64,000 nt of DNA from Hypanus sabinus (lineage: Eukaryota): positions 20,460,001 to 20,524,000 of the forward strand of contig NC_082731.1 in assembly GCF_030144855.1 (NCBI RefSeq), given 5' to 3'. Of the stretch, positions 8,395 to 62,975 are shown piece by piece. Position numbers and translations under genes: made by a program. Within the stretch, counting starts at the first letter, position 1. The number at the start of each line of letters is the position of its first letter. The notes beneath the pieces are model-generated. The model was not told the origin of the DNA. It saw only the letters and a program-made list of their open reading frames with translations, and did no database searches.

Positions 8395-9570
8395 ACTTTA
8401 CTTGGCAAAGTGGCAGGAGCGCAAAAACAAATCCCCCACGGTCACGTGATCTAATTAAGAATGCGAACATTATTCGCAAACGGCATGCAGATTTGAGGAA
8501 CTCTCCGTCAATGGAATGTGTACCAATTTGTACAAATTAAGCGTTGTAAAGCATTTCCCAAACACACGCGATATGATGACAAAGGGGCAAATGTATCAAT
8601 AACTGATCTGCATTTGCCAACTGCCGGATTGCATATTAACAGGAAGTTTGTATTACGAGTGTAGGAAAAACAACGGTGAAAGGAATAAAAGCGAATTTCA
8701 GATACTCGAAATAGGCAAGGTGCCGCCTTCAGGGTATTTCTGGATCTGTCCAAATAATGACAGTACTATTCTCGGAATAGATCCTGAAAGGGCAGCAAGG
8801 GGCATTGTAGATCTAAGAAAGGGTTAAATAATATACACAAGTCAAAGGCAGCGCTCACGAAGAGCCAAATTCGTATATAACGTCACCAGCGTAATCGCAC
8901 TGACAGATGTTCACAAGTCAGGAACGGAAATTAGGGACACTGGAATTAATGCCGCGTGTACCCTCCTCAAAGAGAGGGAGGAACACGAATGTCAAATAGA
9001 AATAGAGCAGGAAAACGATATGGGTGCAAAGGAAATACCTCTGGACGGAAAGCAGGGAATACTTTGTGGATGGGTCTCGGAGGTACATAAACTAGAACAC
9101 ACGGTCTGGGTGCACTGTGGTGATGGACGCCGGTGAAGAGTGTAACTTCAACAGGACTACCAGCGGATTGCTAAGCTCAGGTTTCGAACCAGCTGGCCCT
9201 GACCGAAACAATGCGCCACAGTAAAGACAGACAAGAAGATATATATTCAGATAGCCCGTGTACCTTCCGGATGGTTATCAGCTGGCCTGCTGTTGATGAG
9301 GATTTGTGAGCATAACAGGTGCAGGTATACAGCACGGGCACCCAATACAACAACTACTCTGCACTCTCTGCCAGCTCAATTGACAGTAATTAAAGTGGAA
9401 TCTCAGCAGTAAGACAATATTAAGGAGCAGAAAGTAATAACAAGAAATTGCAAATATGCAGGAAGAAACGTCGGAAGCGATTTGAATAAAAACAGAGAGC
9501 TCTCAGTGGACCCTTGGATAACATTGAAGAAGCAGGGGAAAAACTTATGTCTGGTCATTATGAAGAAAAG

Positions 9571-9705
9571 AAAATCTGCGTATTTTGGAAATGCAAGAAA
9601 CACACACAAACCGCTGGTGGAATTCACGTGGCGAGGCAGCATCTTTGTAGTGATGAACTGTAATTAAGCTGCCTGGTCTGCTGCGTTCCTCCAGAATTTT
9701 GCATG
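9571..9705. repeat. Palindromic short element inserted just before the integrase core
   Basis: Arms cacacaaaatgctggaggaa..caggcagc / gctgcctg..ttcctccagcattttgtgtg (clearest at 21863-21997); also ~28636, 47451, 51920, 59931. Confidence 0.65.
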
Positions 9706-9934
9706 TATTGTCTTCTAATTATGGATCACTTCAGTCGGCGGGTAGAAGTTTTCCCAACCAGAGCAGCACTGCACGGTGTATTGTCAGTTAATCTTACCAA
9801 GGTGAAGAACTTTTCCAGACGGTGAAGGTGAAGAACTCTTCCAGACGGACGATGACCAGGAGCATATTTAACAGGGAATGTGATAAATGAAATTTGCCGA
9901 CTGCTAAGGATTCTACAACGTTTGCACAGACCCG

Positions 9935-10467
9935 ACCACCAAGGACGCGGCCTGGCAGATTAATGCGCCTTCAGGATTCAGGACCTGTTGCGTGGTTGAT
10001 TCGAGGCCGGTGCTGCCACCTGATGAGATGTGTGAGCCCACAGATGATCTGAAGCAGCAATTAGTGATGACCCGATTTTTTTGGCAAATAGCTCGGAAAA
10101 AGCGACGCCACAGACTTTAAGCGCCATAAATCAGAGAGTTGTTTGTTATGTCTCTCCCCTCGCTGTGAAATGGGACACCTCATTTGCCCTTATTCGGGAG
10201 AAACACAGACTGGTATATGTGGAATACTGGGTGAACGATTTGTCTTTGATGTACTGCATATATCTGTCTTTCTTAATGCTTTGGTGCAGGCTTGAGTGTT
10301 CTTACCGGGTGCCGATGCTTTTCACAGGAGGAGGAGGGAAGGGGATTCATTGTTTGGGGCACTCCTCTGTTTTTCTGGATGTTTTCGAAGAAATATTATT
10401 TCAGGATGTATATTGTATATATTTCTCCGACAATAAATGTGCCCGTTTAACCCATCGAAGCTATTGA
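9935..10467 (+). mobile_element. ~530-bp SINE-like insertion splitting the ERV integrase
   Basis: Lies between integrase HIPYH and PQSSG codons; ends in catttctctgacaataaatgtacctatt..(acctattgaac) tail; copies ~28982-29570, 47800-48362, 52265-52870. Confidence 0.6.
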
Positions 10468-13400
10468 TCCCTCAGAGTTCAGAAATGCTCGAAAACATAA
10501 ACCGAGGAATACCTTTGCCAAAACTGCTGCTGATCGGAAAGACATGGGTTGATGTATTACCAGTCATCCTGATGAGCTTCTCAGCCGCTATGAGCTATTG
10601 ATAGGGTGAAAAGATCAGATTCCCTTATGGGATAATTACGGGTTGCGTTGAGCCTGGGCTGTACAGAGATAGACTGACACAGTACGTGAAAGAGCTTTGT
10701 ATGCGACTTATCGTATTGAAGGATTGAGCCAACAACAGCAGAACATTGATGATCAGAGAGATCCACTGCGAAAGGAGATAGTCCTTCCAAATCGCAGTGA
10801 CCGACTCATGGTGAGGGTGTTGCTTGAAAGTGTATGCTCCCAGATAGATCGGACCACAGAGAGTTCTTTTAAAAAAGTGGCACGTGTTTTTATGAAGGCT
10901 TTACGAGTCAGCCAGTGGAAACAATGGATTTAGTTTATACTGTAAGACTCACCTTCTCGTTGCCACCATAGACAATGCGGGGGGAGGAGTGCAGCTAGTA
11001 GCGGTGTAATTTCAGAGAATCCAACAGATGGACACCAGCCAGCCACACCAGAACTGACCACAATGGATGGAAACTGATCCATAGGAAACGCGAAGGTATA
11101 GGGCACCTAGCTGTGAATAACATGCTAAAGAGTGACATTAAAAGTACTCTGTTTTGACCTGATTACTTAAGGTATGTGATTCGTTTAATAGCAGGAAATA
11201 GAAAATACATTGCAGAAAATGGCTCGGTATGGATTTAATTTAAAGCAGACATATCCATTACGTCGATAGCATGGTAGAATCAGGAAAGCCGACGGAATCT
11301 GAAGGCAGTTACGCTCAGCCTGTTTGTGGAATAGAAGTGGGCTGGCCGCTTTCATCAGTTGCGTCCAGCGATCGTCTGGGTAGTTGAGTGCAACCAGGGA
11401 GAGGTCGTTGCGGTAATTGAAATGGAGACCACCCGAACTCCTTATTGTACATCGCTGAGAGGGCCTGTGTGCCTGACGAATTTACTTTGCCGCTGACACT
11501 GGAAAGAGAGAGTTGTAGCTACCAGAGAATGGAGGGATGAAGACAAGGAATTGACTAAGCTTCAATTGGTCAGTAAAGGAAGAACCAACAGGCAGACACA
11601 TGAAGCTGCATTTCTAAACACCGTTGTTCACATTGCGGGACAAACGCTCTGCTTAGCATTTTGAAGTTAGCATCTTGGTGTGATCGGGTAGATGAGCATG
11701 CGCCTGCAGGAATTATGGGAAAATCTGACGGAGAACATTTTGCTGCCCAATTTGAGTACTTCTTCCTTAAGATTGGCCTTTCGCGTTCGATACTTATTTT
11801 TGTCTGCTGTGTCAACAGGCTGGAATGTTCGGGAGAATTTTAGATCCAGCATATGTCGCAATTAAATTAACTGAATTCGGCCAATAACATTCAGAATTGA
11901 ATATGCATTTTAGATTATTTTAAAATGCAGCTCTGAACAAATGGGTCCGAAACGTCTGAGAACCCGGACCAGACAATGCTTATTAAAGTACATTCAGATG
12001 TCTGTGGTATGGTTGCGAATGGTGTGGTGTGAGATTTGTGTGTGTTTCCAAAGAAAGCATTGAGGGTGTATTGTAAATATAGAATTGTCCTTTGATGGTT
12101 AGGACATAATATATGAGGTAGTGTGGACAACGAGACCTTTGAACCGAAATGGCCTTAAATCAGTATTTTGTCTGCTGTATGTTCTGCATTCAAAAATCTG
12201 ACCCTGAGTATAATCAGCTTTTGGTTATGGGTGCATTTTTTACCCCACCCACTCCTATGAGATCCGACTACCTAATCCCTCGCATCTGCTTTCCGCGGAG
12301 ATTGCTCCTTCCGCGATTTCATTTAATTCAGCATCACCACTAATCTTCAACCAGGCACTTATTCTTGTAAGCAGCTTGGTAGGTACACCTGCATCACTAC
12401 CACTGAGAGCCGAAAACGTTTTTCCTATTTTCTGACTCAGTGGCATGTACTCCCTTTGTCGGCGGGAAGACATGCGGAGAGGAATGCGTCTGAATTGCAC
12501 TTTGCGAGTGGGCAGAGAGAGAGAGAGTAAAATCTATGGAAATCTGTGGGGAACTAATATGATGTGAAAATGGAGGGATAAAGAGGGCGATTGGTAATAA
12601 AGGAGTGAGAAAATGAATAAATGAGGCAGACGTAAGTACACTGAAATAGTGAGAGAAAGAAATGGTGATCGATAGAGCAGTAAGGAGAGCGAGAGGCAGG
12701 GTAAGCGATAGAAACTGTGACGTGGACTCTTAGTGGAAGAAGAATGTAAGAATGAGAATGCGATCCAGACACTATAGTGTAGTACTCATCACGAAGATGT
12801 TTGCAGTTCTGGGCATCGGAATTCGATGTTCTATTGCTGTGCATCTATATAATGTCTGTATGACATCACGTCAGCATTTGCGGAAATTCTGCGGGATCTC
12901 CAGTCTGCGCTCAGTGTCCAAAGATGGGCTAATACTTAGGTTAATAACTCAATGCAAATTGTGCTGTGATTAGGTTTGGGTCTTGGATCGCGACAGGTGA
13001 TGCTCGGTGCCCGACGGGACGATTCCGGGATCCACCGCCAATTAATAAATAAAACAAAAGTGGAAAGTGTGGGACAGAGAAAGCATGAGAGAGAGGAAGA
13101 CGGACTGAGCGAGAGAAATGGGAAGGGGAAGACAGAGCAAGAGGGAAGGAAGAATATATCTGTGGGGGCATGAGAAAACAATTGAGAAGGATGCAAAGAA
13201 AGAGGGAAAGTCAAAGTAGAAGGCGGAAACGAAATAGAGGAAAGCAACAATTGTGGAACTGAAGGGGCGATCGATGGAGAAAATAGTGACACGGTAGAAA
13301 ATGAAAAATAGAAGGTTAGATATGAATAGGATGTGAGGCAATCAGAGAGAGAGGGAGATAGACAGGTGATAAATAAGGCTAATTTTCTTTATTTTTAAAT

Positions 13401-14541: not shown

Positions 14542-14972
14542 ATGAATTTCCGGTGTTCTCTGCTGATTATATTGGCTCTGATGACCGGTTAGTCTTCGTG
14601 GTAACTGCCTGTCTCTGTTCCTTATTCCAGAGAAAGCTCGATCTGTTCATGCATTCTGTCATTTTCTTGCAGGAGCAATTGGGAAAGATTCAGTGACGCA
14701 GTGGCCGACTAAAATAACGATTGTGGAAGCACAAAAGGTATCACTGCACTGTAATTACACTGGCGATCCTCAAAATATTATTTGGTACGTTCAACGTCGA
14801 GCGGAATCTCCAAAATATGTGTTGACGTCATATAGCACTGGAATGATGGACCGGCATGCAGAATGTCCGGAGAGGTTAACCGGTGTTTGGCAGAGAGGCA
14901 GCAAGGCGGCACATTTGACGATCGCTGGTGCTTCTGTGTCGGACCCGCCGTGTATTTTTGTGCCATGAAGCC
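14542..14972 (+). pseudogene. TRAV: TCR V pseudogene V2 (leader 14542-14587, exon 14673-14972), FR3 frameshift
   Basis: 1-nt deletion (ggacccgcc vs ggactccgcc, ~14944) shifts out the second Cys and gives DPPCIFVP*. Confidence 0.92.
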
Positions 14973-15011
14973 CACAGTGTTGTGAGGTGATGAGAGCACC
15001 TGACAAAATCC
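14973..15011 (+). promoter_or_regulatory. RSS V2 (CACAGTG-23-ACAAAATCC)
   Basis: Intact heptamer, spacer and nonamer. Confidence 0.93.
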
Positions 15012-16068
15012 GAAGTCCGTGGCAGGAGCGCAGAAAATAAATCTATCCACGATCACGTGTTATATTTAAGTACGTGTAAATTATTCGCAAAAGATGTGTA
15101 GATTTGAGAAACTCTCCGTCGATGCAATGTGTACCAATTTGCACAATTTGAAACTTTATAAATCATTTCCCAAACAAATGCGATATGTCAGCTGACACAG
15201 TGGCAATATTATCGGTAACTAATCTGTATTTGCCGACAACCAACAGGATATTTATGTTACGGGTACAGGAGGAATATCGGTTATCTTCGAAAGTAGAGAT
15301 TTTAATATACTCCAAATAGGCGAGGCGCAACTTTCAATGTAATTCTAGATCTGTCCAAATAATGAGGGCACTATTCTCGGATAAGAAACTGAAATGGAAG
15401 TAAGTGGCATCGTAGATCCAGGAAAGGATAAAATGTTCCATGCCGAACGCTTACTCTCACCTAGTCCCACCTATCCGCACTCAGCCCATAACGCTCCATT
15501 CCTTTCCTGTCCACATACCTATCCATTTTGTTTAAAATGATAAAATCGAACCTGCCTCTGCCACATCTACTGGAAGCTCATTCCACGCAGATACCCCTCT
15601 ATGAGTAAAGAAGTTCCCCTCGTGTTACCCCTAAACTTTTGCATCTTAACTCTCAACTCATGTCCTCTTGTTTGAATCTCCCCTACTCTCAATGGAAAAC
15701 GCCTATCAATGAAAACTCTATCTATCCCCCTCATAATTTTAAATACCTCTATGAAGTCCACCCCTCAACCTTCTACACTCCAAAGAATAAAGACCTAACT
15801 TGTTCAACATTTCCCTGTAACCTAGGTGTTGAAACTCAGGTAACATTCTAGTAAATATCTGTACTCCCTCCATTTTATTGACATCTATCCGATAATTTGG
15901 TGACCAGAACTGAACATAATACTCCAAATTTGGCCTCACTAATGACTTGTACAATTTCAACATTACATCCCAACTCCTATACTCAATGCTTTGATTTATA
16001 AAGGCCAGCATACCAAAAGCTTTCTTCACCGCCTTACCCACATGAGATTCCACCTTCAGGGAACTATG

Positions 16069-18105
16069 TGTTACGCCCCTGAAAAACGGGGAGAAATAAT
16101 CACGTCAGCTATGTGAGGTGGTTGCCTTATTGAGAATTTACACAAGTGAAGAAAGTACCGCAATATCCCCTGGGTAAGACCTTCTGTGAGTTGGTACTCA
16201 AGGGTCAAGGGTCACAGTTCGATGAATGTCAACAGTCCATAATCACAGGACCCAGTCCATGTCTGGTGACGGGCCGCTGAGACGGTCTCTTCGCAGTCTT
16301 TCAACAGTCCATAGTCTCTCATGGCAATGTTCCGCATAAACAGTCTATGCATTGCCCATGACGTTAGTCAAATATCAGTTCTGTAGGCTCACACTGGCTG
16401 GCGTCCATACATGGTGGTGGGGGGGGGGGTATTGGAAGTAGTATGACTGTACAGGTGGTAGCCATTGGACCATTCCTGATGCATGGAAGAGAGGCAACAT
16501 CTGAGGTGCCGGCTAGACACTGTAGCAGGAAGGGATGCCAAGCTGATTGTAGATCATACGTCTCGGCGCGTGTCTCTGACTTTGTGGCAGCTGATAGGGC
16601 GGTTCCTCATGTTCAGTCGCAGCATTTGGTGAAGAAGAGGGGTGTGAGGAACGATCATCAGGCAGATTTCCAGCAGGGAAGTCTGTTTCCGCATCAGGCA
16701 GGTTTTCAGCAGGTGCATTAAACTCCTCCAGCCGATCTCCTTCAGGAGGCTACGCGGGTGATGCGACAGGAGCTTGCGTTTCAATTCTCCCTTCTGCTGG
16801 TGGGTGCCTGTTTTCAGGCTCCATCTCTGGTTCACCCAATGTCTCATTCCCTTCTGCTGGCATCCTGGGGGGCCGGAGCGGCTCATAATGAAGCTCAGAC
16901 TCATCCTCACTGTCCTCATCTGATTCCTGAGTTTGATGTGCAGGCTGGTGTCTCTTTTTCTGTCTCCTCTGGTCATTTGTAGCGATCTCTGGTTGTGTCT
17001 CAAAAGGTAAGTGATGACGGGGCATTAGCACGTTTCTGTATAGGACTCTGGAGTGTCCCTTACCCCTTTCTGGACTCAGTTCATAAATAGGCAGGCCTGA
17101 CCCCATTTGTCTCAATACTGTGTGGACTGTGTCCTCCCAATAGTTTCGGAGTTTACCTGGTCCCCCTCTGGGTGTCAAGTTTTTAATCAGGCCACGCTCA
17201 CCGGGTTGTAGAACTGAACTCCTTGCTTTTGTGTCATAGTACATTTTACTCCTTTCGGCAGCCCTTTGAGCATTTTGGTTTACAATGGCGTATGCTTCCT
17301 CCATACCTTGTTTCCATTTTTCCTCATAATTTCGCTGATCACTGGAACCTGGCTCTGTGTGCAGTCCAAAGAGCATACCAACTGGCAGCCTGGGTGATCT
17401 CCCGTACAGGAGGTAAAACGGTGAGTAGCCTGTCACTTCGCAGCGTGTGCACTTATAGGCATACACCAGTTTGTTCAGGGACTCATTCCAGTTTGATTTC
17501 TGTGTCTCCGTCAGTGTCCTTAGCATTTGCAACAATGTCCTATTCATGCGTTCCACTTGACCGTTCCCCATCGGGTGATAGGGCGTTGTTCTGGACCCAG
17601 CCACTCCGCTGAATTACTTTAACAGACTGAAGAACTGATTCTCGAACTCTCCTCATTGGTCGTGGTGGATGCGAGAGGGGAAGCCAAACTTCCGGGCGTA
17701 GTCAGTGAAGATGAGATTTGCAGTTTTTCCGGACTTTGATGTGGTTGCGTACGCCTGAACAAAACGTGTGCAGTGATCAACAACAACAAGGATGTACTCA
17801 TATCCACCTTTGCATCGGTCTAGATGGAGGAAGTCAAGACACACCAATTCAAATGGCTGTGTCGCCACAATATTTGTCAAGGGGGCTCTTGTATCGCAGC
17901 AGGGCTTTTTTGTTTTAGACAAGTGCAGGCTTTGGTCACATAGTGCTCTATTTCTGATTGCATTTATGGCCAGAAGAAGCGATAATACACTAAAGATACT
18001 GTGCAATCAGCGCCTTGGTGTCCTACATGATTGTGCAGTTCTTCCAACACCTTCCCTTTGTAGCTTTCTGGCAAGACTAATTGCTTGCGGGCAATTATAT
18101 ATGTA

Positions 18106-18166
<61 letters not shown>

Positions 18167-20140
18167 GTGTGTGTGGGTGCGTTTGGCTGGTTCGGTGTCT
18201 TTGAGCGAAATAGTCATATGCAAGTTTTCAATGCAGCCAAGATCCTTATCCGACCTTGAGAAGGAATGACACTCTTCTCTAAGCATCTGTTTCACTATTT
18301 GACTCCGCTTCTCACTGAGGTGGCTTATATCTACAGGTGGGTCCCACTGTTTACTGGCACTACCTGTGGGTTTCATGCTGGTGTGACTCATTGTGGCTGG
18401 TGTTGCAACTTTCTCAAAATCGGGGCGGGCAGTACCGTCATAATAGTATGTACTTTGACAATTAAAGTGCGCACTGGCAGAACAATGTCATGGCCAGTTG
18501 GATTAGACACATCAATTGTGATGACTGGCAGTACATGCTTCCTGACTCTGACTAGGGTGTCATAAAACTCAAGACCATCTGGGCACTGTGGGTTCAGGTC
18601 TGGCTGAAATAACACGGTCATGTCCTCTTTAAAAGGCTGTGCAGCTACACGTCAGTTAACTTGGATACTACTGTGTTTTCAAACTGCAAACTCCTGTTCC
18701 TTCATTTTCACCGCATACTCATCTTCTTGCTCTGCACTAAGAGCCTGGATGAAAGCTCTCACCCTTTTTTTCCTTTGAGTCCTGGGCAAGCTTTTCTCAC
18801 CGTGCTATATTGTTAAGTCTTTTTGGTTTTAGTCAGAATGTGCTTAATAACAGAAAAGCCAATGATGGGATGAGACAGGTGCCAGACTTTCATTACAAGC
18901 ACTGGAATGATCAGTGCTTCTGCTTGGTCAATTTTAGAGGCTAGCCGGAAAGTCGTTTCAGTCAACCCAAATAAGGCATTTCAGTTCCGTTTGCGGCAGT
19001 CAATGTCAAATCGTCATATGAGTCAAGGATCTCCGAGACATCTCTCAGCTTTGTGGTTGGCAAGTCTTCCTGTTTCCACCTTTCATCGATTATCGACACC
19101 TGACAGCCTGGGTCACATCAAGCTTGCAGTTAGTGGCCATCCAGGTAGCACTCGACAGTACACTGCCTACCAACTAGCTCGGTGACTTTGTGGGGGAGGC
19201 CAACCCGAGCTCAGGGGGGCGATGTGTTAACAGCTTTCTCTTCACAGGACGACCCTTGTTTCCGGTTGTCAGGTGAATCTATACGGCCACAATTTGCACG
19301 TTTCTGGGACTCTTTGCGAGTCACGGTTAACACCCGTCCCGTGGTGGTAACCATTTCCTGTTTCGACGGTCTGATTCCTCTAATTTTGCAGCCGGCTTGA
19401 AAATGTTCTCCACTTCCACATCGGTGGCAGTTTAGGCAGCGTCCATTTGTTCCTATCTGCTGGCAGACAAAATATTTCCGTGGAGCATGGACAGAGCGGT
19501 TAGTGTACTGATTAGGTCCATACTGAGGCTGCATTGGAGCAGGTGTTTGCGGCTGACTGTAGCTGTTGTAATACTGTTGCAGTAAAGCAGGTGACTGAGG
19601 GTCTCTATCTAGCCTGACTGCAGATGGGGCATAGGGCTGTTGATGAGACCTCATCTGTGTAGAGTCTCTTTAATCTGAGCTATCTCGGCACTGAGACCTT
19701 TTAAAGAAGCTACACCTGTCTTAAGCTCTTGTATCTCTGTTAACAGTTCAGGGGAAACCAGTGTCTTGTCTTCCTGCACCCGACACGTAGTAGATGCCCT
19801 ATCCTCTGACTGCACTACGCTTACATTTGTTGCTGAATGTGGGGTGTTAGACTTCTGTTTGTTTCTTCTTTCGGCCTCCTTAGCACAGGCGATGTTTAAT
19901 CTCTCTAACAAAAGTTCATTTGAGGTTTCAGTATCAAGGAGGAGAGGCTGCATGTCTATCCTGATACTGCCATTCTGGAGACCAGTACGTAATGTGTGTA
20001 AGCACATGCGCTGGACTAAAGCTGGATCATACCTAAGCCCTGATTCTGACTCTTGGGAAGCAAACAGTACTTTCTGCCTCACATCGAGAACCCGCATGAG
20101 AAAACTCTGAGGGGTTTCTTTGCTGTTCTGTACATCAGAA
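16069..20140 (-). mobile_element. Gypsy/Ty3 LTR retrotransposon, 5'-truncated, RT/RNase H mostly deleted
   Basis: gag-like 19651..20097; CHRCGSGEHFQAGC knuckle (19211..19654); RT start DLGCIENLHMTISL (18095..18391); integrase LDFLHLD..YILVVVDHCTRF, SRIHHDQ (17653..18006) and TTPYHPMGNGQVERMNRTL (16750..17604); minus-strand terminus ...ggggcgtaaCA at 16069. Confidence 0.88.
18103..18174. repeat. (TG)n/(CG)n microsatellite
   Basis: Direct reading. Confidence 0.95.
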
Positions 20141-21179
20141 GCTAGATGCTTGTAAAGCTCTCATTATCCATTACGCCACCTATCTCAGTATCATCTGCAT
20201 ACTTACTAATCCAATTTACCATTCCATCATCCAGACCATTAATGTGTATGACTAACAACATTGGACCCAGTACAGATCCCTGAGGCACAACACTAGTCAC
20301 TGGCCTGCAACTTGACAAACAGTTATCCACTACTACTCTCTGGCATCTCCCATCCAGCCACTGTTGAATCCATTGCACGACTGCAATATTAATACCTAAC
20401 GATTTAACCTTCCTAACTAACCCTCCGTGTGGAACCTTGTCAAAGGCCTTACTGAAATCCGTATAAATAAAATCCATTGCTTTACCCTCGTCAACTTTCC
20501 TAGTAACCGCTTCAAAAAATTCAATAAGTTATATCAAACATGACCTTCCACGCACAAATCCAAGTTGACTGCTCCGAATCAGACCCTGTCTATACAGATG
20601 ATCGTATATTTCATCTCTCAGAATACTTTCCATTAATTTACCCACCACTGACATCAAACTTATAGGCAAACAATGGAACCACATCGACAATACGCTAATC
20701 CTTCGGCACCATCCCCGTTTCGAATGAAATATTTCTGAGAGAGTCCCTGCTATTTCTACACTAAATTCCTTCAAGGTCCTAGTGAATATCCTGTCAGGAT
20801 CCGGAGATGTATCCACTTTTATATTCTTTAAAAGCTCTAGTACACCCTCTTCTTTAATCATTATAGTTTCCATAACTACCCAACTTGCTTCCATTAACTT
20901 ACAGAATTCAACAGAGTTCTCTTTAGTGAATTCCGAAGAAAAGAAATTGTTCAGAATCTCCCCGATCTCTTTTGGCTCCACACATAGCTGTCCACTCTGC
21001 TTCTCTAAGGGACCAATTTTATCCCTTACTATCCTTTTGCTATTAACATAACTGTAGAAACCCTTTGGATTTATTTTCACCTTCCCTGTCAAAGCAACCT
21101 CATATATTCATTTAGGTTTTTTAATTTTTTTTCTGAAGATGCTTTTTACATTCTTTACATTCCTCGGGCACCTCATTTA

Positions 21180-44844: not shown

Positions 44845-44883
44845 CACAGTGTTGCAAGGTGATGAGAGCTCCGGACAAAATCC
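44845..44883 (+). promoter_or_regulatory. RSS V6 (CACAGTG-23-ACAAAATCC)
   Basis: Intact. Confidence 0.93.
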
Positions 44884-50928: not shown

Positions 50929-50967
50929 CACAGTGTTGTAAGGTGATGAGAGCTCTGGACAAAATTC
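50929..50967 (+). promoter_or_regulatory. RSS V7 (CACAGTG-23-ACAAAATTC)
   Basis: Canonical heptamer, 23-bp spacer. Confidence 0.92.
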
Positions 50968-51004: not shown

Positions 51005-51129
51005 CCTATGCCGGAAATCTGGCAGTAGCACAGAAAAAATTCCTTACAGTCACGTGATCGACTAAGAAATGCGAAAAGTATTCTCATAAATAAACAGATT
51101 GGAGGAAGTCTCCGTCAACGGATCTTTTC

Positions 51130-53430
51130 AAATAATGAGTGCACTATTCTCGGATTAGACTCTGAAAGTGAAGCAAAAGCCATTGTAGATCCAGGAAAGG
51201 GTGAAATAATATGTGCAAGGCAAGGTCAGAGGGCACGTTCATCCAAATTGGTACACAACACAGTCAGCGTAATCGCACTGACAGCTGTTCACGTCAGTAA
51301 CGGCAGTTAGGGACACTGGAATTAATCCCGCGAGCACCCTGCTCACAGAGGGGGAGGCACACGAATGACAAGTGGGAATAGAGCAGGAAAACTTATCAGT
51401 GCAAAGGAAATATCTCAGCACAGAAAGTAAGGAATTGCTTTGTGGATGGTTCTCGGAGGTAGATAAACTAGAACACACGGTCTGTGGTGAAGGGTGCAGG
51501 TGAAGAAAAGGCATCAGCTGCATGGCCAGGGGATTGCTAAACTTAGGTGACGGGCCTGCTGGCCCTGACAAAAACAATGCGCTACAGTAAAGTCAGAAAA
51601 GCCAATCTATATTCAGAGAGCCTGTATAGATTTGGGAACGTTATCAGATGGCCTGCAGGCGATGAGGATTGTGACCATAACAGGTTCAGCTATTGAGCCC
51701 GGCCACCAAATACAACTGCTGGAAGCACTGTCTGCCAGCTCAAGTGACAGTAATTAAAGTGGAATCTCAGCGGTAAGAGAAGAGTAAGGAGCAGAAAGTA
51801 ATAGCAAGAAATTCCAGGTGTGCAGGAAGAAACGTCGAAAACCAGTTGAATAACGACAGACAGCTCCAGGGGGACCCTTGGGTAAGAGTCAAAAAGCGGG
51901 GGGAAAGCTTAAAGAATGCACAATCTTCAGATGATGGAAATCCAAGAAATACACTCAAAATTCTCGAGAGCGTCACCTAGCCAGACAGCATCTCTGTAGT
52001 GATGAACTGTAATTAAACTGCCAGACCTGCTGCGTTCCTCCAGTACTGTGTTTGTATTGTCTTGTAATTATGGATCACTTCAGCAGGCGGATAGAAGATT
52101 TCCCAATCAGAGACTGCACCGCCGGCAGCGCTGCAGATAATACTACCAAGGTGAATGACTCTTCCAGATGGACTATGACCATGAAGCACATTTCACAGGG
52201 AGAGTGACAAATGAAATGTGCCGACCGCGAGTGATTCGACAACGGTTCCACATCCCCTACCACCAAGGACGCGGCCTGGAAGATTAGTACGCCTTCAGCG
52301 TCCCGGCCCTAGACACCTGTTGATTCGAGGCAGGTGCTGTCCTCTGATGTGTTGTGGGCGTACACGGAAGATCTAAAGCCGCTGCAAATAGGGACACTAG
52401 TTCTTTGGGCACAGAGCTCGGAAAAAGCGACAACACAGGCTTTGAACACCATAAGTCAGCGAGATGTTTGTTATGTCTCCCCTCTCGCTATGAAACCGGA
52501 ACATCTATTTTCCCCTTATCTAGTAGAAACAGAGCCAGTCAAATACTCGGCGAACGATTTGTCTTTGATGTCCTGTCTATAACCGGCTTTCCTAATGCTT
52601 TGCTGCAGGGTTCTGTGCTCTTGCCGGGTGCCGATGCTTTTTACTCATTCGGGTTAGGGTTAGGGTTAGGGTGTTCGTTTCTTTGATGCTGCTTAGACGT
52701 GGCAGGGGGGAGTTGGGGGGGGGATTTGCGTTTCTAATATATGTCATTTATTCTTTGGGGCATTGTTATGTTTTCCTGGATGCTTTCGAAGAAATAATAT
52801 TTCAGGCTGCATTTTCTATACATTTCTCTGACAATAAAGGTACCTATTTAACCTATCAAATCTATTGAACCGTTTGAGTTCAGGAAAGGTAGCAAACATA
52901 AACCAAAAAATATCTTTGCCAAAACTACCGCTGATCGGGAAAGACATGGGTTGATGTACTGCCATTCATCCTGATGAGAATGCGAACAATCCAAGCCGCA
53001 CGCTGGTTTACAGCCGCTATGAGCTATTGGTAGGGTGAGAAGTCGAACTCCCTTAGGGGACAATTACGGGTTGCGGTGAACCTCGAGTGTACAGGGATAG
53101 ATTGACATAGTATGTGAAGGTGCTTTGTATGCGACTTAACGTATTGATGGATCGTGGCAAACACCAGCAGCAGATTGATGATCAGAGAGATCAATTAAGA
53201 AAGGAGATAGTCCTCTAAAACCGAGTGACCCAGTAATGGTGAGGATAGTGCTTGAAAGTGTATGCTGCCAGCTGGATAGGACCAATGATGGTACATTCAA
53301 AAGGAGACACATGTTCATGTGGAGACTTCACGAGTCAAGTAGTAGGAACAATGGATTCAGGTTATACTGTGAGAATCATCGTCTTGTTGCTACCATAGGC
53401 AAAGCCGGGGAAGAGTACAGCTAGTAACCG
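51130..53430 (+). mobile_element. ERV relic (unit V7)
   Basis: GINPASTLL at 51318; FVDGS ~51439; YCLVIMDHFSRR at 52055; MDYDHEAHFTGRVTNEMCRPRVIRQRFHIPYH at 52168-52263. Confidence 0.85.
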
Positions 53431-54136
53431 TGTAATTATCGAGAATAGAAGAGATGGACACCAGCCAGCCACACCAGAACTGACCATAATAGATGGAAAC
53501 TGAACCACAGCAAAAGTAGTGGGCACCTAGAATGTGACAGAAACCCGTGAATAACATCCTAAAGAGTGACCATAAAAGTACTCTGTTCAGACAGCTGAAT
53601 ACTGAAGGTATATGAGTACTTGAATAGCAGAAAATTAAAAAAAAAACTTTTTGCAGAGAATGAATCGGCAGCAATTTAGTTTAAATCAGACATATCCATA
53701 ACTTCGAGCATGGTAGAACGAGGAAGATTACAGACGGAATCTGAATGCAGTGACGCTCAGTCTGAATGGGGAATAGAAGTGGGCTGGCCCCTTTCTGCAG
53801 TTGCGGCCAGCGATCGACTGTATAGTTCGGACAGGATCGCAACCAGGAAGAGGTCGTTGCAGTAATTGAAATGGAGAAAACCCCAATCCCTTATTGTACA
53901 TCGATGAGAGAGCCTGTGAGCCTGATGAATTTACTATTCTGCTGCCCCTGGAAAGAGAGAGTATTAGCTACCCGAGAATGGAGAGATGAAGACAGGGAAT
54001 TGACTAAGCTTCAGTCGGTCAGAAAAGAAAGCGCCAACAGGCATACGCATGAATCTGCATTTCGAAAGACTGTTGTTCACATTTCTGGACAAACTCTCTG
54101 TTTAGCATTTTGAAGGTAGCACTTAGGTATGATAAG

Positions 54137-56012
54137 GTATATGTACATGCGCCTGAAGAACTTATGAGAAATTCCGTAGGAGGGCATTTTCGCTCTCCAA
54201 TTTGAGTAAATCTTCATTAAGATTGGCCTTTCGTGCTAGATAACTATTTTTGACCGTTGTGCCAATAGGAGGGAAAGTTCAAGTGCATTTTAGATGCAGC
54301 ACATGTGGCAATTAATGCAATTGACTTCGGTGACTATCCTTCTGAGCCGGCCATGCATTTTAGATTATTTTAAAATGCAGCTCTGAACAATAGCTTCCGG
54401 AACGCCTCAAATCACAGATCAGAAAATGCTTATTAAAATTCATTTAGATATCTGTGGTATGGTTACGAATCGTGATGTATGAGGTTTGTGTGTGCTTCCA
54501 ATGAAAGCTTTGCGGGTGTATTGTAAATAATGAATTGTCATTTGATGGAACATAATGTATGAGGTAGCGTGGGCAGCATGACCTTTCAAACGAAAGGGCC
54601 TTAGACGAGTATATTGCCTGCTGCGTCTTGTTTTTCTTTTAAAAAAAAAGACCCTGAGTATAATCGGCTGTTGTGTTTAGGTGCATCGTTTGCTCCACCC
54701 GCTCCTGAGGAACTCCACTACATACTCCCAGCCGTCCGCTTTCCGCGTGGATTTCTCTTCCCGCGATTACTTCTCCTTCATTCTCGCCATTAATCTTCGA
54801 CCAGACATTTACTCTTGTAAGCGGCTTGATAGCTACACCTGTGTCACTACCATTGAAAGCCGAATACGTTTTGTTTATTTTCTGCCTGAGTGGCCTGCCC
54901 TCTGTTTGCCGGAAGGAAGACATGCGAAGAGAAATGCGTCTGAATTGCGATTTGCGAGTGGGCAGAAGAGAGAGTAAAATCCAGGGATACGTGTGGGCAA
55001 AGAATATGGTGGGATAATGGAGGGAGAAAGACTGCGACTGGGAATGATGCAGTGAGAAAGTGAAAAAAACTGAGGGAGACGTAAGGACAATGAAAAAGTG
55101 AAAGAGGGAGAAATGGTGATGGACAGAGCAGGAAGTGGAGCGAGTGTCAGGGGAAGAGAGAGAAACTGGGTAGGGGAGACATAGTGGAAGAATAATGTTA
55201 GAAAGAGAATGAGGTCCAGCCACCGGAGCGTAGTGTTTATCGCGAAGCTGGTTACAGTTCTGGGCATGGGATTTCAGTGTTCCATTCCTGCACAACTATA
55301 AAGGGCCGGATGACCTCACTTCGGAAAGTGCGGAAATTCTGCGGGATCTGCAGTCTCTGCTCAGAGTCCAAAGTTGAACTGAGAAGTATGTTACTAACTC
55401 ATTTTAATTTTGTTGTGATTTGGGTAGGGACTTGCACTTCCAGAAGTGAAGCTCGATGTCCCATGCGAGTATACCGCGGCTCACTGCTAACGAAATAGGT
55501 AAAACAAAAGTTGAAAGTGTGGGACAATGTAAGCATGAGAGAAAGAGGAAGACGGAGTTAGCTAGAGAAAGGGAAAGGAAAAGACGGAGCAAGAGTGAAG
55601 AAAGGATATATCGTGGCGGGGGGGGGGGTGTGGGACGGGGTGGCATGAGAAAAGAATTGAGTCGGATGAAAATTAGGAGGGAAAGACAAAGTTTAAGGCG
55701 GGAACCGGATAGAGGAAATCAACGCTTGTGAAACTGAAGGAATGATCGATGCAGGGACACTGGAGGGTATGAAAAATGGAAAGTTAGAGGTGAATAGGGA
55801 GTGCGGCTTTCAGAGAGAGAGAGAGGGAGAGTTGGAAAGATGCTAAATAAGACTCAATATTCACCACACCAATTCATCAACTGAATTTACATTCAGGGTG
55901 GCGGACCTGTTGGCCCTGACAAAGACAATCCGCTACTGTAAAGACAAGCATATATATGTTCAGACAGCCCGTATACCTTCGGTACGGTTATCTGGTGACC
56001 TGGGGACGATGA
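54137..56012 (+). other. V-less remnant cassette (upstream region fused to an RNase H fragment)
   Basis: Upstream sequence joins ggtggcggacctg (ERV RNase H) at ~55896, skipping promoter, V and RSS. Confidence 0.8.
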
Positions 56013-56979
56013 GGTAACAATTATATATGATCGGGTAGATGTACATGCGCCTACAGGAATGACGGGATATTCCGACGGAGGATATTTTTGCTGCCCAATT
56101 TGAGCAGCTCTTCCTTAAGATTGGCGTTTCGTGCTAGATAATTATTTTTCTCCATGGTGCCGGGAGGAGAGAATGTTCGAAAGAATTTTAGATCCAGCAC
56201 ATGTGGCAATTCATGTAACTGACTTCTGTCCCTAACCTTCAGAGTCGACTATGCATTGTAGATTATTTTAAAATGCATTTGTGAATAATAGCTTCCAATA
56301 CGCCTTAGTTCACGGACCAGACAATGCTTATTAACACGCATTTAGATGTTGCGGTATGGGTGCGAACCATGAGGTGTGACGTTTGTGTGTGCTTCCAAAG
56401 AAAGTATTGTGGGTGCATTGTAAATATGGGATTGTCCTTTGATAGTTAGTACATAATATATGAGGTAGCATGGGCAGCGAGACCTTTCAAACGAAAGGGC
56501 CTTAAAACAGTATATTGCCTGCTGTGTCTTGTTTTTTTTCAAAAAAACTCACCCTGAGTATACTGTAATCGGCTGTCTTTTTCAGGAGCGTCGTTTGCTC
56601 CACCTTCTCCTAAGGGACTTCACTAGCTGCTCCCTCCCGTCCGCTTTCCGCCAGGAATCTTTCCGCGATTCCTTTTCATTTGCCTTCACCACTAAACTTC
56701 AACTAGGCACTTAGTCTTGTACGCGGCTTCTTAGCTGGACCTGCCTCACTACCACTGAGAGCCGAATAAGTTTTGCCTGTTTTCTACCTCAGTTGCGCGT
56801 CCTCCGTTTGCCGGAGGTAAGACTTGTGGAGAGAAATGCGTCTGAATTGCGGCAGAGGAGAGAGTAAAATCCAAGGAAAAATGTGGGGAACTAATATGGT
56901 GCGAAAGGGAGAAAGAGGACGATTGGGAATGACAGAGTGAGAAGGTGAATAAATCAGGGAGACATATGAGCACTGAAAT

Positions 56980-57012
<33 letters not shown>

Positions 57013-58277
57013 AATGGTGATCGATACAGCAGTCAGTAGAGCGAGAGGCAGGGGAAGAGAGAGAAACTGGGAAGCGGAAGAATTAGTGGAAAAAGGATGT
57101 AAGAAGGCGATGTGGTTCAGCCGCAGTAGCTTAAAGTTTATAGCGAAGCTGTTTACAGTTCTGGGCTTTGGATGTACTGATAAGTATGCTAATGATTTAT
57201 TTTAATTTGAGCTGTGATTAGGTTAGGTTCTTAGATCTCTCGAGGTGAAGCTTGGTGCTAGATTGGAGTATTCCACTATCCACTGCTCAGTAAATAAAAA
57301 AAAACAAAAGTTGAAAATGTGGCACAAAGAAAGCATTGGAGAGAGAGGAAGACGGAGTGCGAGAGAAAGGGAAAGAAAAAACCGAGCAAGAGGGAAGGAT
57401 GGATACATCGTGGGGGGCGGGGCTTCATGAAGAAACAATTAAGACGGATGAAAATAAAGAGGGAAAGGCAAAATTTAAGGCAGGAACTAGATAGAGGAAA
57501 GCAACGCTCGCGAAACTGAAGGAGAGATCGATGTAGGGACACGACAGGGAATGAAAAATGGGTTGGAGATGAATAGGGTGTGAAGCGGTCAGAGAGAGAG
57601 AGAGAGAGAGAGAGGTGATAAATAAGACTCAATAATTACCACTCCAATTCATTAACTGAATTTACATGCAGTGTGCAATATGGAGAAAGTCCAAACATTG
57701 AGAAGAAATACGGGGAATAAATGCTGGAGAGCGATATTGAGAACACGCCAGAAAGAATGAGCGATATATAGATAGAGAGCGAGAGAGTGGGTGCGTGTGT
57801 GAGAGAGAGAGGTTCAATGGAACAGAAAGAATGAATGAGGGGGAAGCAAATCGTAAGGATATGGAGCTTCGAAAAATGGAGGGCTATCGATAAGCATAGG
57901 TAGTTATAAGGTAAGGAGATGTTCAGCATAGCTTTGTGGGCCGAAGGGACTGTATTATGCTGTCGGTTTTGTATGTTTCTATGTTCCTAGTGAATCAAAT
58001 TGCAAATAAGAGAAAGGAGGAGAAACCTTGCGATTTACTAATACGAGATAGAAAGAGGTACAAAGGCAAGCAAAATCAGCCAAAAGAACTGAAACAAAAT
58101 ATGATTGGTGTACGGACCGGGTTCATTTGGCGCTTACAGCCAATCAATGCAACGGCAGGACTGCACCCCCACATTTACGCAAGCTGAAATATGCCGCAGG
58201 TCTGATTTTACTTTTCATTATCGGTCAAGAATATTAAGTTATTCGACTACAAGTAAACTGTTTTAGATCAAGTGAGC

Positions 58278-58710
58278 ATGAATTTCCTGTGTTCTGTGCT
58301 GATTATATCGGCTGTGATGCCCGGTGAGTCTTCGCGGTAACGGTCTGTATCTGTTCCCTATGCCCGGAGAAATCTCGATCTGTTCATTCATTCTGTCATT
58401 TTATTGCAGGAGCAATTGGGAAAGATTCCGTGACGCAGTGGCCGACTGATTTAACGGCTGTAGAAGGACAAAATGTCACGCTGAACTGTAATTACACTGG
58501 CGATGCTCAATATATTATTTGGTACGTTCAGCATCGAGTGGAATCTCCAAAATACTTGCTAAAGGTGCATAGCACCAGAAAGATGGACCGACATGCAGAA
58601 TGTTCAGCGAGGTTTACCGGGGGTTTGGAAGGTGGCAGAAAGGAAGCAAATTTCAACATCTCTGGTGCTTTTGTGTCGGACTCCGCCGTGTATCTTTGTG
58701 CCATGATTCC
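58278..58710 (+). CDS. TRAV: TCR V segment V8 (leader 58278-58323, exon 58410-58710), apparently functional
   Basis: Complete V domain ending YLCAMIP; intact splice sites. Confidence 0.92.
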
Positions 58711-58749
58711 CACAGTGTTGCAAGGTGATGAGAGCTCAGCACAAAATCC
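58711..58749 (+). promoter_or_regulatory. RSS V8 (CACAGTG-23-ACAAAATCC)
   Basis: Intact. Confidence 0.95.
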
Positions 58750-58786: not shown

Positions 58787-58964
58787 CCTTTGCCGGGAAT
58801 CTGACAGGGGCATAAGATACAAATCCCTCAGGGTCACGTGATCGACTAAGAATGCGAATATTTTTCGCAAAAGTTATGGAGATTTGAAGAACTCTCCGTC
58901 ATTGGGATGTGTACCAACTTGCACACATTGAAACGATATGTAACATTTGCCAAACACATGCGGC

Positions 58965-61900
58965 ATGTTAGTGACACAGGGGTCCACCAACAGCCGGACA
59001 GTATAGTTTAATACAGTACAGGAGAAGTAACTGTGAAAGTAGAAAGCAGCGAATTGCAGATACTCGAAATAGGCGAGGCGCAACTGCCAATGTGTTTTTG
59101 GATCTGTCCAAATAATTCGGACACCCTTCTCCGACTAGATACTGAAATACAAGCAAGGGTTATTGTAGATTCAGGAAAGGTTGAAATAGTATACAGAAAT
59201 CATTGGCAGCGAGCACGTACAAACAAATTGGTACTTAACATAGCCAGCGTAATAGCACTGATAGCTGTTCACAAGTCAGTAACGGCAGTTAGGGACAGCT
59301 GAATTAATCCCGCGAGGACCCTCCTCACAAAGAGGGAGACACACGAATGTCAAATAAGAATAGGGCAGGAAAAACCTATGGGTGCAAAGGAAGCACCTTT
59401 GGAGGGAAAGCAGGGAGAAGCTTTGTGGATGGGTCTCGGAGGTGCATAAAATAGAAGACACGGTCTTGGTGCATTGTGGTGAATGACGCAGGTTAAGAGT
59501 GATCTTCAGCAGCACTGCCAGGAGATTACTAAGCTCAGGTGGCGGAGCTGCTGGCCTTGACAAAGACAATGCTCTACAGTAAAGTCAAGCAAGCATATAT
59601 ATGTTCTGACGGCTTGTATACCTTCGGGAGGTTTATCTGATGGCTTGGGGATGATGATGATTCGGGACAATAACAGGTGCAGTTATTGAGCACGGGCACC
59701 GAATACAACAACTGCTGAAAGCACTGTCTGACAGCTCGTGACTTTAATTAAAGTGGAATCTCAGCAGTAAGAGAATATTAAGGAGCAGAAAGTAGTAACA
59801 AGAAATTGCAAGTGTGCAGGAAGGAACGTCGGAAGCGATTTGAATAAAGTCAGACAGCTCCGAAGGGTCCTTGGATAACATTCAAAAAGCTGGGGGAAAA
59901 CCTTATGTCTCGTCATTTTGAACAAAAGAGAATCTGTAGATGCTGGAAATCCAAGAAATACACACAATATGCTGGAGAAGTTCACCAGGTCAGGCAACAT
60001 CTCTGTAGTGATGATCTGTAATTAGGCTGCCAGCCTGATGCGTTTCTGCATCATTTTGTGCATGTTGTCTTTAATTATGGATCACATCAGCCGGCAGGTA
60101 GAAGCATTCCCCAACTGAGACTGCCTAACAAGCAGCGCTGCACGGGCTATTATCAAGTAATGTTACCAAGGTCAAGAACCCTTCCAGATGTCCTATGACC
60201 ATGAAGCACATTCCACAATTAAAGTGATAAATGAAATATGCCGACTGCGAGGGATTCGATAAAGTTCCACATATCCTATCACTTAGGAAGCAGCCTGGAA
60301 GATTCGTGCCCCTTCAGGATTCCGGACCTAGAGGCGGGCTGAATCGAGGCCGGCGCTGCCGCCTGCTGTGTTGTGTGAGTACACGGGAGATCTAAAGATG
60401 CAATAACTAGGAGCCCGAGTTCTTTGGGCACAGAGCTCGGAAAAAAAGCGACTCCTCAATCTTTGAACGACATATATCAGAGAGCTGTTTGTTATGTCTT
60501 TCCTCTGGCTGTGAGGCGGCAACACCTCTTTTCCCCTTATTTGGGCGAACGGGAGCCTGTGACATGTCGAATAGTGACTGAACGAATTGTCTTTGACGTA
60601 CTGTCTTTCTTAATGGTTTGCTGCAGGCTTGAGTGCTCTTGCTAGGTGCTGATGCATTTTACTTGTGGGGAAGGGTGTTCGTTGCTTGGCTGCAGCTTGA
60701 GCGTTGCAGGGAGAAGTCGGGGGTGAAGGTTTGCGCCTCTAATAACTTCATTCATTCTTTGGGCATTCCTTTTTTCCCCGCACGTTTTCGAAGAAATATT
60801 ATTTCAGGATGAGCAGTGTCATGCAAACGTTTGGGCACCCCGGTCGAAATTTCTGTTATTCTGAATAGCTAAGCATGTAGAAGATGACCTGATTTCAGGA
60901 CGGCATAAAGTTATAGATGACAAATTGCTTTAATGTTTTAAGCAAGATTACTTTTTTTTTATTTCCATCTTTTAGAGTTTGAAAATAATAAAAAAGGAAA
61001 AGGACCTAAGCAAAAGTTTGGGCACCCTGCATGGTCACTGCTTAGTAACACACCCTTCTGCAAGTAGCACTGCTTGTAAACGCTTTCTGCAGCCAGCTAA
61101 GAATATTTCAATTCTTGTTTGGGGGATTTTCGCCCATTCATCCTTGCAAAAGGCTTCAATTTCTGAGAAATTCTTGGGCCATCATGCATGCACTGTTCTA
61201 TCGAGGTCTATCCACAGATTTTCGATGATGTTTAGGACTGGGGACTGTGAGGGCCGTGGCAAAACCTTGAGATTGCGCCTCCTGATGTAGTCCATTGTGG
61301 ATATTTAAGTGTGTTTAGGATCATTACCTGTTGTAGAAGCCATCCTCTTTTCATCTTCCGTTTTTTTTTACAGACGGTGTGATGTTTTATTCAATCATTT
61401 GCTGGTATTTCATTGAATTCATTCTTCCTTGTACCAGTGAATTATTCCCCCTGCCATTGGCTGCAACACAAGCACAAAACATGATCGATACACCCCCGTG
61501 CTTAACAGTTGGAGAGGTTTTATTTCCTTGAAATTCTGCATCTTAATTTTTCTCCAAACATACCTTTGTTCATTGCGGCCAGGAAGTTCTATTTTAAATT
61601 CACCGGTCCTCAGGACTTGTTTACCAAATGTGTCAGGCTTGTTTAAATGCAGTTTTGCAAACTTTTGACACTGAATTTCGTGGTGAGGACGCAGATTTAG
61701 GTTTTCTTTTGATGACTCTTCCATGAAGGTCATATTTGTGCAGATGTCGCTGCACAGTAGAACAGTGCACCATCACTCCAGGGTCTGTTGAATCTTCTGG
61801 AAGGTCCTTTGCAGTCAAGCGGGGATTCTGATTTGTCTTTCTAGCAATCCTATGAGCAGTTCTCTCGGAAAGTTTTCTAGGTCTTCCGGACCTCAACTTG

Positions 61901-62975
61901 ACCTCCACTATTCTTGTTAACTGCCATTTCCTATTTACATTACGAACTGAGGAAACGGCTACCTGAAAACGCTTTTCTATCTCCTCGTAGCTTTCCATGG
62001 CTGCTGATTGCTGGGAGAAGGTTTGGGGAGTCAGGGTGATTACAAAGCATTGGAAGTTGCATCACCTAGCCTTTCCTATGGATGACTGTGAACAAGCCAT
62101 AGCCCTACCAAACTAGTTGAAGTCTGAGACCTTGTTATATGTTATCTGACTGCCCAATTGTCTTGGGGTGCCCTAACTTTTGCATGGTTCTCCTTTCCTT
62201 TCTTTCCACTCGAAAATTGTACAAAACAAAAAAACAATACGTTAATATTGCTCAAAATGTTGAAAAGAATGTTTCACCTTTATGGGTTTCTGGAGTTTAG
62301 TTCACTTAAATATTTCAGTAACAGAAACTTTGACCAGTGATGCTCAAACATTAGAATGCCTCTGTATATTCTATACATTTCTCTGACATTAAATGTACCT
62401 ATTTAACCTAACGAACCTATTGTACCCTCAGAGTTCAGGAAAGGTAGTAAACATAAACCAAGGAATCCCTTTGCCAAATTTACAACTTATAGGGAAAGAC
62501 AAGGGTTGATATGTTACTATTCATCCTGATGAGATTGCGAACAATCCAATCCGCACGCTGGTTTTCATCCTATATGAGCTATTGACAGGGTGAATAATCA
62601 GATTCCCTCATGGGATAATTCCGGATTGCGGTGAGCCTGGGGTGTACAGGGATAGCTTGACAAAGTATGTGAACGACCTTTGCATGCAACTTAAAATATT
62701 GTATGTTCGAGCCAAACAACAGCAGCACATTGATGATTAAGAGATCCATTGAGAAAGGAGTTAGTCCTCCCAAAACCGTATGACTAAGTTCTGGTGAGGG
62801 TGTTGCTTGAAAGTGTATGCTCCCAGTTGAATCGGACCACAGAGGGTACTTTCAAAAAGAGTTCATGTGGAGACTTCACGAGTCAACCATTAAAAACAAT
62901 GGATTCAGGTTATACAGTGAGACTAACTTTCGTGTTGCCACCACAGACAAAGCTGGGGAAGGAGTGCAGCTAGTA
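58965..62975 (+). mobile_element. ERV relic (unit V8), split by Tc1
   Basis: ORF 59033..59302 FWICPNNSDTLLRLD (protease C-terminus); INPARTLL ~59304; FVDG ~59423; integrase core ~60065-60280. Confidence 0.75.
60814..62364 (-). mobile_element. Tc1/mariner DNA transposon (paralog of 39666-42395)
   Basis: Left TIR cagtgtcatgcaaacgtttgggcacccc; right end ..atgcctctg|TA; transposase 61419..61998(-) with RSGRPRKLS motif. Confidence 0.88.

Follow-up and report, generated by a model that had tools for sequence, protein, structure and literature searches.

The V-gene array

A 64,000-nucleotide stretch of the Hypanus sabinus genome (NCBI RefSeq assembly GCF_030144855.1, contig NC_082731.1, positions 20,460,001 to 20,524,000 of the forward strand), called the window here, holds an array of T-cell receptor (TCR) V genes whose tandem units also carry the remnant of an endogenous retrovirus (ERV). 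All array data come from this window, and positions are counted from its first letter. Self-comparison showed a unit of ~6 kb (49,282-55,287 in the case of U7) repeated across the window at 67-84% identity. Eight units (U1 to U8) have a V gene (V1 to V8). A further unit (55,288-57,173, U7b) has lost its V gene, and the tail of a tenth (U0) lies at the left edge.

Each V gene consists of a leader exon of 46 nt, a GT-AG intron of 85-86 bp, a V exon of ~300 bp, and a recombination signal sequence (RSS). A V-set domain was recognized by Pfam in all six V exons that were scanned. A 23-bp RSS within three mismatches of the consensus follows seven of the eight V genes, where 0.66 would be expected by chance. 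The exact consensus pattern had no match in the window, the nonamer here being ACAAAATCC. The frames of V1, V3, V4, V7, and V8 are open (5/8), and V2, V5, and V6 carry stops. Differences among the V genes concentrate at codons 30-35 and 51-60, that is, in complementarity-determining regions (CDRs) 1 and 2. The best PDB match of the V exon was a TCR alpha chain, and alpha chains were the commonest TCR matches, with beta chains and antibodies scoring close behind. Read from these V-domain matches, the locus is probably of TRA/TRD type. No TCR J or C segment was seen in the 64-kb window.

One dead provirus copied with the V gene

Downstream of the V gene, every unit carries decayed retroviral pol DNA on the V-gene strand, with the domains in the order protease, RNase H, and integrase (Table 1). 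A reading of the letters by themselves (the sequence-only reading) had described a pro-pol relic in this canonical order and orientation. Its motifs MLVDTGA (33843), GINPASTLL (51318), and FVDGS (9063) are present, and the other motifs it named occur in one or more copies. It placed the start of the relic ~200 bp after the RSS, which is close to the measured position, as protease homology begins ~220-250 bp 3' of the RSS nonamer. Its description of the whole spacer as a retroviral gene does not hold, and its inference that the relic turned into a structural spacer is not supported. Pol-homologous DNA amounts to ~1.9 kb of the 6.2-kb U1, or ~30% of the unit, and ~3 kb of other spacer was copied as faithfully as the remnant. 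The count of at least nine copies linked to a V gene needs amending: there are eight V-linked remnants, the ninth is a 121-bp remnant in the V-less U7b, and several copies are incomplete. U2, U4, and U5 have lost part or all of integrase, and U7 has lost part of protease.

The copies have their major lesions in common. The junction between protease and the tether, at which ~440 codons of a natural relative (described below) are missing, aligns without offset in all six uninterrupted copies. Between RNase H and the integrase core there are 264-280 bp in U2, U3, and U7 versus 513 bp in the relative, so that ~235 bp are missing. Stop triplets are shared at the relative's residues 611 (8/8 copies), 637 (7/8), 681 (7/8), 720 (7/7), 933 (4/5), and 1029 (6/6). 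Stops at 980, 983, and 994, which are shared and lie beside a frameshift where they may be off-frame, and one at 627, which is misaligned, were left out of these six. An insert of ~550-600 bp splits the integrase core at the same point, and its edges coincide in 6/6 copies aligned at each side. The host flanks on both sides, the V gene, and its RSS distance to the remnant are likewise homologous across units.

Because the junction of the reverse transcriptase (RT) deletion, the six stops, and the integrase insert are common to the copies, a single provirus, already deleted and dead, was duplicated together with the V gene, as the sequence-only reading had proposed. Independent insertions with different junctions were not seen; junctions and flanks are shared. 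Each copy has about 1-8 private stops against the six secure shared ones. This comparison suggests that the remnant decayed before the duplications for roughly as long as after them, or longer.

Table 1. Features of the V-gene array and its proviral remnants (positions in the window).
Feature	Position	Strand	Remarks
U0, tail of further unit	1238..6610	+	split by ~4.3 kb of LINE pieces (1429-5699); V and remnant would fall left of window
V1	7890..8360	+	leader exon, 85-bp intron, V exon 8021-8321, 23-bp RSS; open frame
U1 remnant, 5' part	8578..9935	+	protease 8578-8863; tether end and RNase H 8915-9409; integrase N half from 9706
U1 repeat in integrase core	9936..10465	+	edges approximate
U1 integrase C half and C-terminal region	10470..10930	+	
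V2 with RSS	14542..15011	+	pseudogene: frameshift and stop close to 3' end
U2 remnant	15176..22650	+	protease 15176-15435; RNase H 21217-21719; short integrase N piece; internal deletion at 22038; integrase C half from 22212
U2 interruption between protease and RNase H	15437-21170		LINE pieces with nested LTR-retrotransposon-like element
V3 with RSS	27129..27600	+	open frame
U3 remnant	27810..30058	+	protease 27810-28051; RNase H 28100-28491; integrase N half 28771-28973; repeat insert; integrase C half from 29571
V4	33154..33624	+	open frame; RSS altered (CACAATG, 22-bp spacer)
U4 remnant	33834..36690	+	protease 33834-34125; LINE pieces ~34150-36040; RNase H 36071-36563; integrase lost by deletion at 36690
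V5 with RSS	37632..38103	+	likely pseudogene: splicing makes a stop at the split codon
U5 remnant	38314..42936	+	protease 38314-38566; RNase H 38624-39069; deletion at 39104; repeat insert with Tc1-like element (~39661-42392); integrase C half from 42457
V6 with RSS	44412..44883	+	pseudogene: in-frame stop
U6 remnant	45097..48361	+	protease 45097-45373; RNase H 45426-45923; private insertion 45986-47317; integrase N half 47586-47804; repeat insert to assembly gap
V7 with RSS	50496..50967	+	open frame
U7 remnant, 5' part	51110..52263	+	protease C part 51110-51250 (N part deleted); RNase H 51294-51791; integrase N half from 52055
U7 copy of integrase insert	52264..52868	+	high-copy SINE-like interspersed repeat; AATAAA near 3' end; right edge approximate
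U7 integrase C half and C-terminal region	52872..53370	+	
U7 downstream spacer	53480..55287	+	common to units; no env, no Pfam match
U7b, V-less unit	55288..57173	+	retains upstream DNA, 121-bp RNase H piece (55895-56015), downstream spacer
V8 with RSS	58278..58749	+	open frame
U8 remnant	58965..62900	+	protease to 59230; RNase H 59258-59723; integrase N half 60071-60282; repeat insert with Tc1-like element (~60812-62361); integrase C half from 62426
CTCF-like 14-mer	27624..27637 (U3), 33648-33661 (U4), 58773-58786 (U8)	+	23 bp after RSS nonamer; lead only

Retroviral identity of the remnant

Single copies do not reach the Pfam gathering cut-offs: 39 frames gave three relevant sub-threshold matches (RNase_H twice and rve once, E 0.0009-0.007). 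A profile built from seven natural RNase H pieces matched the RNase H of xenotropic murine leukemia virus-related virus (XMRV) and murine leukemia virus (MLV) at E 2e-5. Searched against 1.84 billion proteins, this profile returned 26, with RNase H-like proteins of Pristiophorus, Heterodontus, and Hypanus on top; three of the eleven returned proteins that were scanned in Pfam were unrelated. Among 17 proteins tried, the Hypanus protein scored best on all eight RNase H copies. The profile matches led to longer relatives, of which P0053 had the highest summed score. Its cluster contains a Mustelus asterias protein and P0104, whose domains are RVP, RVT_1, tether, RNase_H, zinc finger, and rve. 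In P0104, RT_RNaseH covers residues 443-546 and a separate RNase_H covers 597-745, and alignments of the remnant start at residue 533-552 in 7/8 copies. The protease, RNase H, and integrase of the remnant are roughly 32-50% identical to P0104.

Further evidence comes from frameshift-aware alignment of the remnant with the natural relative, in which a segment was counted only if it scored above the maximum of eight shuffles. The C-terminal end of protease passed in 8/8 units, the tether end with RNase H in 9/9, the N half of integrase in five, and the C half in six. RT passed in none of 14 segments, consistent with the claim that it is missing in all copies, and the main part of the tether was marginal in two of 14. 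In integrase, the interval from the second D to the E consists of 28 codons before the insert and 7 after it. The sum of 35, which the sequence-only reading had obtained by removing the insert, equals that of the natural relative. Most of these alignments begin at residue 896, past the first D, leaving the first D of the D,D-35-E motif outside.

The remnant itself has no RT. The RT of its relatives matched MLV best in the PDB (368 bits, versus 177 for foamy virus and 156 for Ty3). In a quick, midpoint-rooted RT tree of 34 rows that had no SnRV or WDSV references, the relatives (P0104, P0053, P0102, P0050, and P0051; shark and minnow Pol) formed a long separate branch (SH-aLRT 97) apart from 28 class I-type proteins. 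The class I affinity in the sequence-only reading is thus not borne out by the intact relatives, and class I membership of the remnant is not established.

Several searches returned nothing. No env was found, and 12 frames of two downstream spacers had no Pfam match; decay could hide an env there, and no env of the family was available for comparison. Self-comparison revealed no pair of long terminal repeats (LTRs) within a unit. No gag or LTR was found, with none of the family to compare with. Scans of viral and metagenome contigs with P0104 and with the V alignment gave no confirmed locus, neither one integrase piece nor the RNase H alignment retrieved a homologue in word-based searches, and a single integrase piece had no relevant match in the PDB.

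Age of the array and later insertions

Mean identity between copies is 78-85% in every region of the unit, and the trees are star-like. U2 and U4 form the only firm group (96-100 in three regions). V5 is placed with V3, though weakly, yet a Tc1-like insertion is common to U5 and U8. The parts of the unit differ modestly in their site patterns (145 informative sites, five units, permutation p = 0.012), and this mosaic signal runs along the unit with no focus on the remnant. Synonymous divergence is 0.19 for V and 0.19-0.24 for the remnant. These patterns fit a duplication burst in which units exchanged some sequence and after which single units acquired insertions and deletions of their own.

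The integrase insert is a high-copy repeat, because its depth in four public runs is ~100 times that of the RNase H region. The sequence-only reading had called it a short interspersed nuclear element (SINE). It had no Rfam match and ARAGORN found no tRNA gene in it, so the label comes from depth and shape and not from a library match. In four runs of two other organisms, related integrase-core DNA had a depth of ~10 times that of RNase H, and some run contigs read through without the insert, the shorter side covering 22 letters. RNase H depth was no greater than V exon depth in four runs. Run depth is not copy number, and the 80% cut-off used undercounts the more diverged remnant. The runs of the two other organisms hold some pieces that are 93-96% identical to U7 and other pieces that are ~82-85% identical, and two run pieces bridge the junction between insert and integrase with >31 letters to either side. 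It is therefore likely that the cassette was already present and duplicated before the split from those two organisms.

Later mobile elements have further interrupted the units. The long interspersed nuclear element (LINE) pieces of U2 and U4 have an identical right junction, and the Tc1-like insertions of U5 (~39661-42392) and U8 (~60812-62361) occupy one site and have the same altered end. The U5 Tc1-like copy contains a further insertion of ~1.1 kb (about 39962-41103). The LINE that splits U2 holds an LTR-retrotransposon-like element on the opposite strand (~16100-20160, -), with an integrase (rve matches) and a likely gag frame. A hairpin element at 30786-30967 is private to U3; it has a sub-threshold Rfam match to mir-1791 and is likely a miniature inverted-repeat transposable element or a SINE fold-back.

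Selection and regulation

Identity between copies is 79-82% for the remnant, 78% for the repeat insert, 82-84% for the downstream spacer, and 85% for the V exon, and 100-bp windows show no conservation peak on the remnant. The U3 downstream row (66%) was discounted as it overlaps a private insertion. The ratio of nonsynonymous to synonymous divergence (dN/dS) is 0.82 for RNase H (48 codons, four copies), 0.55 for the V framework, and about 2 for CDR1 and CDR2, whose limits were set by eye. These values suggest diversifying selection on CDR1 and CDR2 of the V exons. V4 and V7 stay open despite the loss of integrase in U4 and the partial loss of protease in U7.

The sequence-only reading had also suggested that the relic may have supplied regulatory sites. 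A functional role is unsupported, as the remnant is no more conserved than the neighboring spacer and deletions cut it in most units. The remnant is most probably a passenger. The nearest thing to a regulatory candidate is a CTCF-like 14-mer (Table 1). Its core CTAGAGGG is retained in 7/8 units, of which four, including those of the open V1 and V7, are below threshold. At two mismatches the pattern has 16 matches in the window versus 8.2 expected. It is a form that we take to represent the CTCF motif and was not derived from a database, and single matches to it are weak. The 14-mer lies ~200 bp 5' of the first viral homology.

Some observations weigh against a purely passive remnant or against its retroviral assignment. 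As neither env, gag, nor LTR was found, the assignment is made from pol only. Constraint was measured in 100-bp windows and in 48 codons of four copies, and a short functional site would escape both. Protease and RNase H DNA, at least, has been retained beside all eight V genes. The CTCF-like 14-mer occurs in 3/8 units at 23 bp 3' of the RSS nonamer, and with the 5' edge of the provirus unmapped it could be viral. Finally, the comparison is confined to 64 kb, and any V families free of the remnant would lie outside it. Even so, a driving or regulatory role of the remnant, both kinds taken together, is unlikely.

Proposed history and alternative explanations

In the proposed history, an ERV of a shark/ray lineage would have inserted in sense orientation on the 3' side of a single ancestral V gene of TRA/TRD type, at a distance of a few hundred bases. 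At that site it would have decayed; RT and most of the tether would have disappeared, and stops, frameshifts, and the SINE-like insert would have accumulated. The shared lesions demonstrate this decay in place and the co-duplication of the remnant with V. The V unit would then have been amplified in a short burst, likely by unequal crossing-over, with homology provided by the whole unit and not by the remnant in particular. The V exons would since have been kept and diversified by selection, and the remnant would have drifted and been cut by deletions and by LINE, Tc1-like, and other insertions. We infer both the crossing-over and the absence of function in this account.

Could the insertion instead have mattered to the V genes? 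A retroviral insertion beside one TCR V gene may have set off or favored the expansion of the V family in rays, either as the seed of unequal crossing-over or through a CTCF-type site that it brought beside the RSS and that made V(D)J recombination use the gene more, but this is rather unlikely. For the first route, the provirus would have driven the expansion by providing the first misaligned homology, with another copy of its family or between its own LTRs, or by acting as a recombination hot spot. Such a role has been proposed for HERV16 as the crossover site in the MIC-HERV16-HLA duplications (PMC6562477; the articles cited here are represented by excerpts), and exchange between units did take place in the ray array, as indicated by the mosaic signal and by the Tc1-like insertion that U5 and U8 share though V5 groups with V3. 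However, the six secure shared stops exceed the private stops of most copies, which places the death of the provirus long before the burst. There is also no LTR pair within a unit, the mosaic signal extends over the whole unit, and in bovine and human TRB repeats are rare at the boundaries of homology units (PMC2685407). The homology for crossing-over that the sequence-only reading tentatively credited to the relic is a property of the entire 6-kb unit, and a provirus that drove the expansion is quite unlikely. The second route is very unlikely. Here, part of the provirus would have been exapted to govern V usage in cis, as a CTCF site by the RSS that stalls RAG scanning might do, and selection would have spread the unit of V plus element. 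In the mouse, proximal VH genes rely on a CTCF element immediately 3' of the RSS (PMC7930373), and the position of the 14-mer in U3, U4, and U8 and its widely retained core are reminiscent of this arrangement. The excess of matches over expectation across the window, the non-database pattern, the four sub-threshold units, and the distance from viral homology all argue against it.

Two other explanations are hardly credible. The copies might be independent insertions of a non-autonomous, RT-less ERV that targets V-gene flanks, and the raised depth of integrase-core DNA together with the insert-skipping contigs indicates that the ERV family may have other members. The homology of flanks, V gene, and RSS distance across units and the sharing of stops and repeat insert refute this within the window. 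The array might also be an assembly artifact, as it contains three N gaps and an inversion near 23,100-24,237, or the remnant might be a Ty3/gypsy piece, given the sub-threshold Pfam matches of single copies and the lack of a detected env. Against an artifact, the copies differ by 15-22% and have private insertions, and U7-like pieces are present in the runs of two other organisms. Against Ty3/gypsy, a second RNase H comes after the tether in the relative, whose RT matches MLV far better than Ty3. A dead provirus carried along with its V gene is the reading followed below.

Comparison with known systems

The closest parallel is the MIC-HERV16-HLA class I duplicon, in which an ERV was copied at least twelve times with immune genes (PMC6562477). 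In both cases an old, defective ERV lies inside a tandem unit of immune genes and later received retroposon insertions, and the ray array shows the shared flanks, junctions, and lesions by which a duplicon of this type, one insertion copied with a gene, is recognized. It differs in that the partner is a rearranging TCR V gene of a cartilaginous fish, the unit measures only ~6 kb, some 250 bp separate the ERV from the RSS, and no LTR is recognizable. A derived transcript of the HCP5 type is known there, as excerpted, and none is known here.

TCR V families usually grow by tandem homology units with few repeats at the boundaries (PMC2685407). The ray array resembles the human and bovine TRB units in that blocks were duplicated with flanking DNA and repeats, deletions later shortened them, and V genes underwent birth and death. 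Unlike those units, as far as the excerpt describes them, it has an ERV pol remnant in every unit, one V per unit, and considerable age (78-85% identity). On the retroviral side, the remnant resembles the pol of shark/ray ERVs and their relatives (Hypanus sabinus XP_059837178; Mustelus asterias XP_078069418, in the cluster of P0104; Pristiophorus; Pimephales) in the order of protease, tether end, RNase H, and integrase and in the D-35-E interval. Unlike them, it has no RT, has lost most of the tether, is ~235 bp shorter from RNase H to the integrase core, and bears stops, frameshifts, and insertions. Chondrichthyan ERVs have been described from the elephant shark (CmiERVs) as SnRV-like or epsilon-like, with env downstream of pol as the strict ERV criterion (PMC4422223), and cartilaginous-fish ERVs are also treated in PMC6001957 and PMC4977317. 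The CmiERVs are likened to the remnant here by host group and not by sequence, and the excerpt of PMC4422223 describes no link to an antigen-receptor locus.

An ERV within the repeat unit of a TCR V array was not found in full-text searches, which did not extend to supplements or to most subscription journals, where much of the shark TCR work appears. The excerpt of an article on retroelements in marsupial IgH contains no comparable cassette (PMC12269197). The best reading is that the kind of event, passive hitch-hiking in a duplication burst, is a known one and that its occurrence in a TCR V array is not in the literature found.

TRA/TRD loci are poorly mapped in this host group, and the alpha locus of the nurse shark is described as unassembled (PMC5931798, excerpt). 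Shared lesions and nested insertions provide a neutral clock and lineage markers for one TCR V family, so the unit can be typed across species. The unit also offers linked neutral DNA of equal age as a yardstick for V evolution, with its elevated CDR dN/dS. In addition, the remnant preserves an old member of a shark/ray ERV lineage that is not clearly in class I. If the insertion did drive the expansion or regulate V use, a retrovirus would have shaped an antigen-receptor repertoire; the present data do not show that.

Minor observations

A frame of ~100 codons is mostly open in three copies of the downstream spacer (63319-63642, 53826-54113, and ~11330-11660, +). An RPN7-type identity was considered for this recurring frame and rejected, as its Atlas cluster matches were below the recognition threshold and it had no PDB or Pfam match. 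A private insertion lies upstream of V2 (13387-13874). At 23099-24237, beside an N gap, a piece of the upstream DNA of the unit is inverted, and this is either a real inversion or an assembly error.

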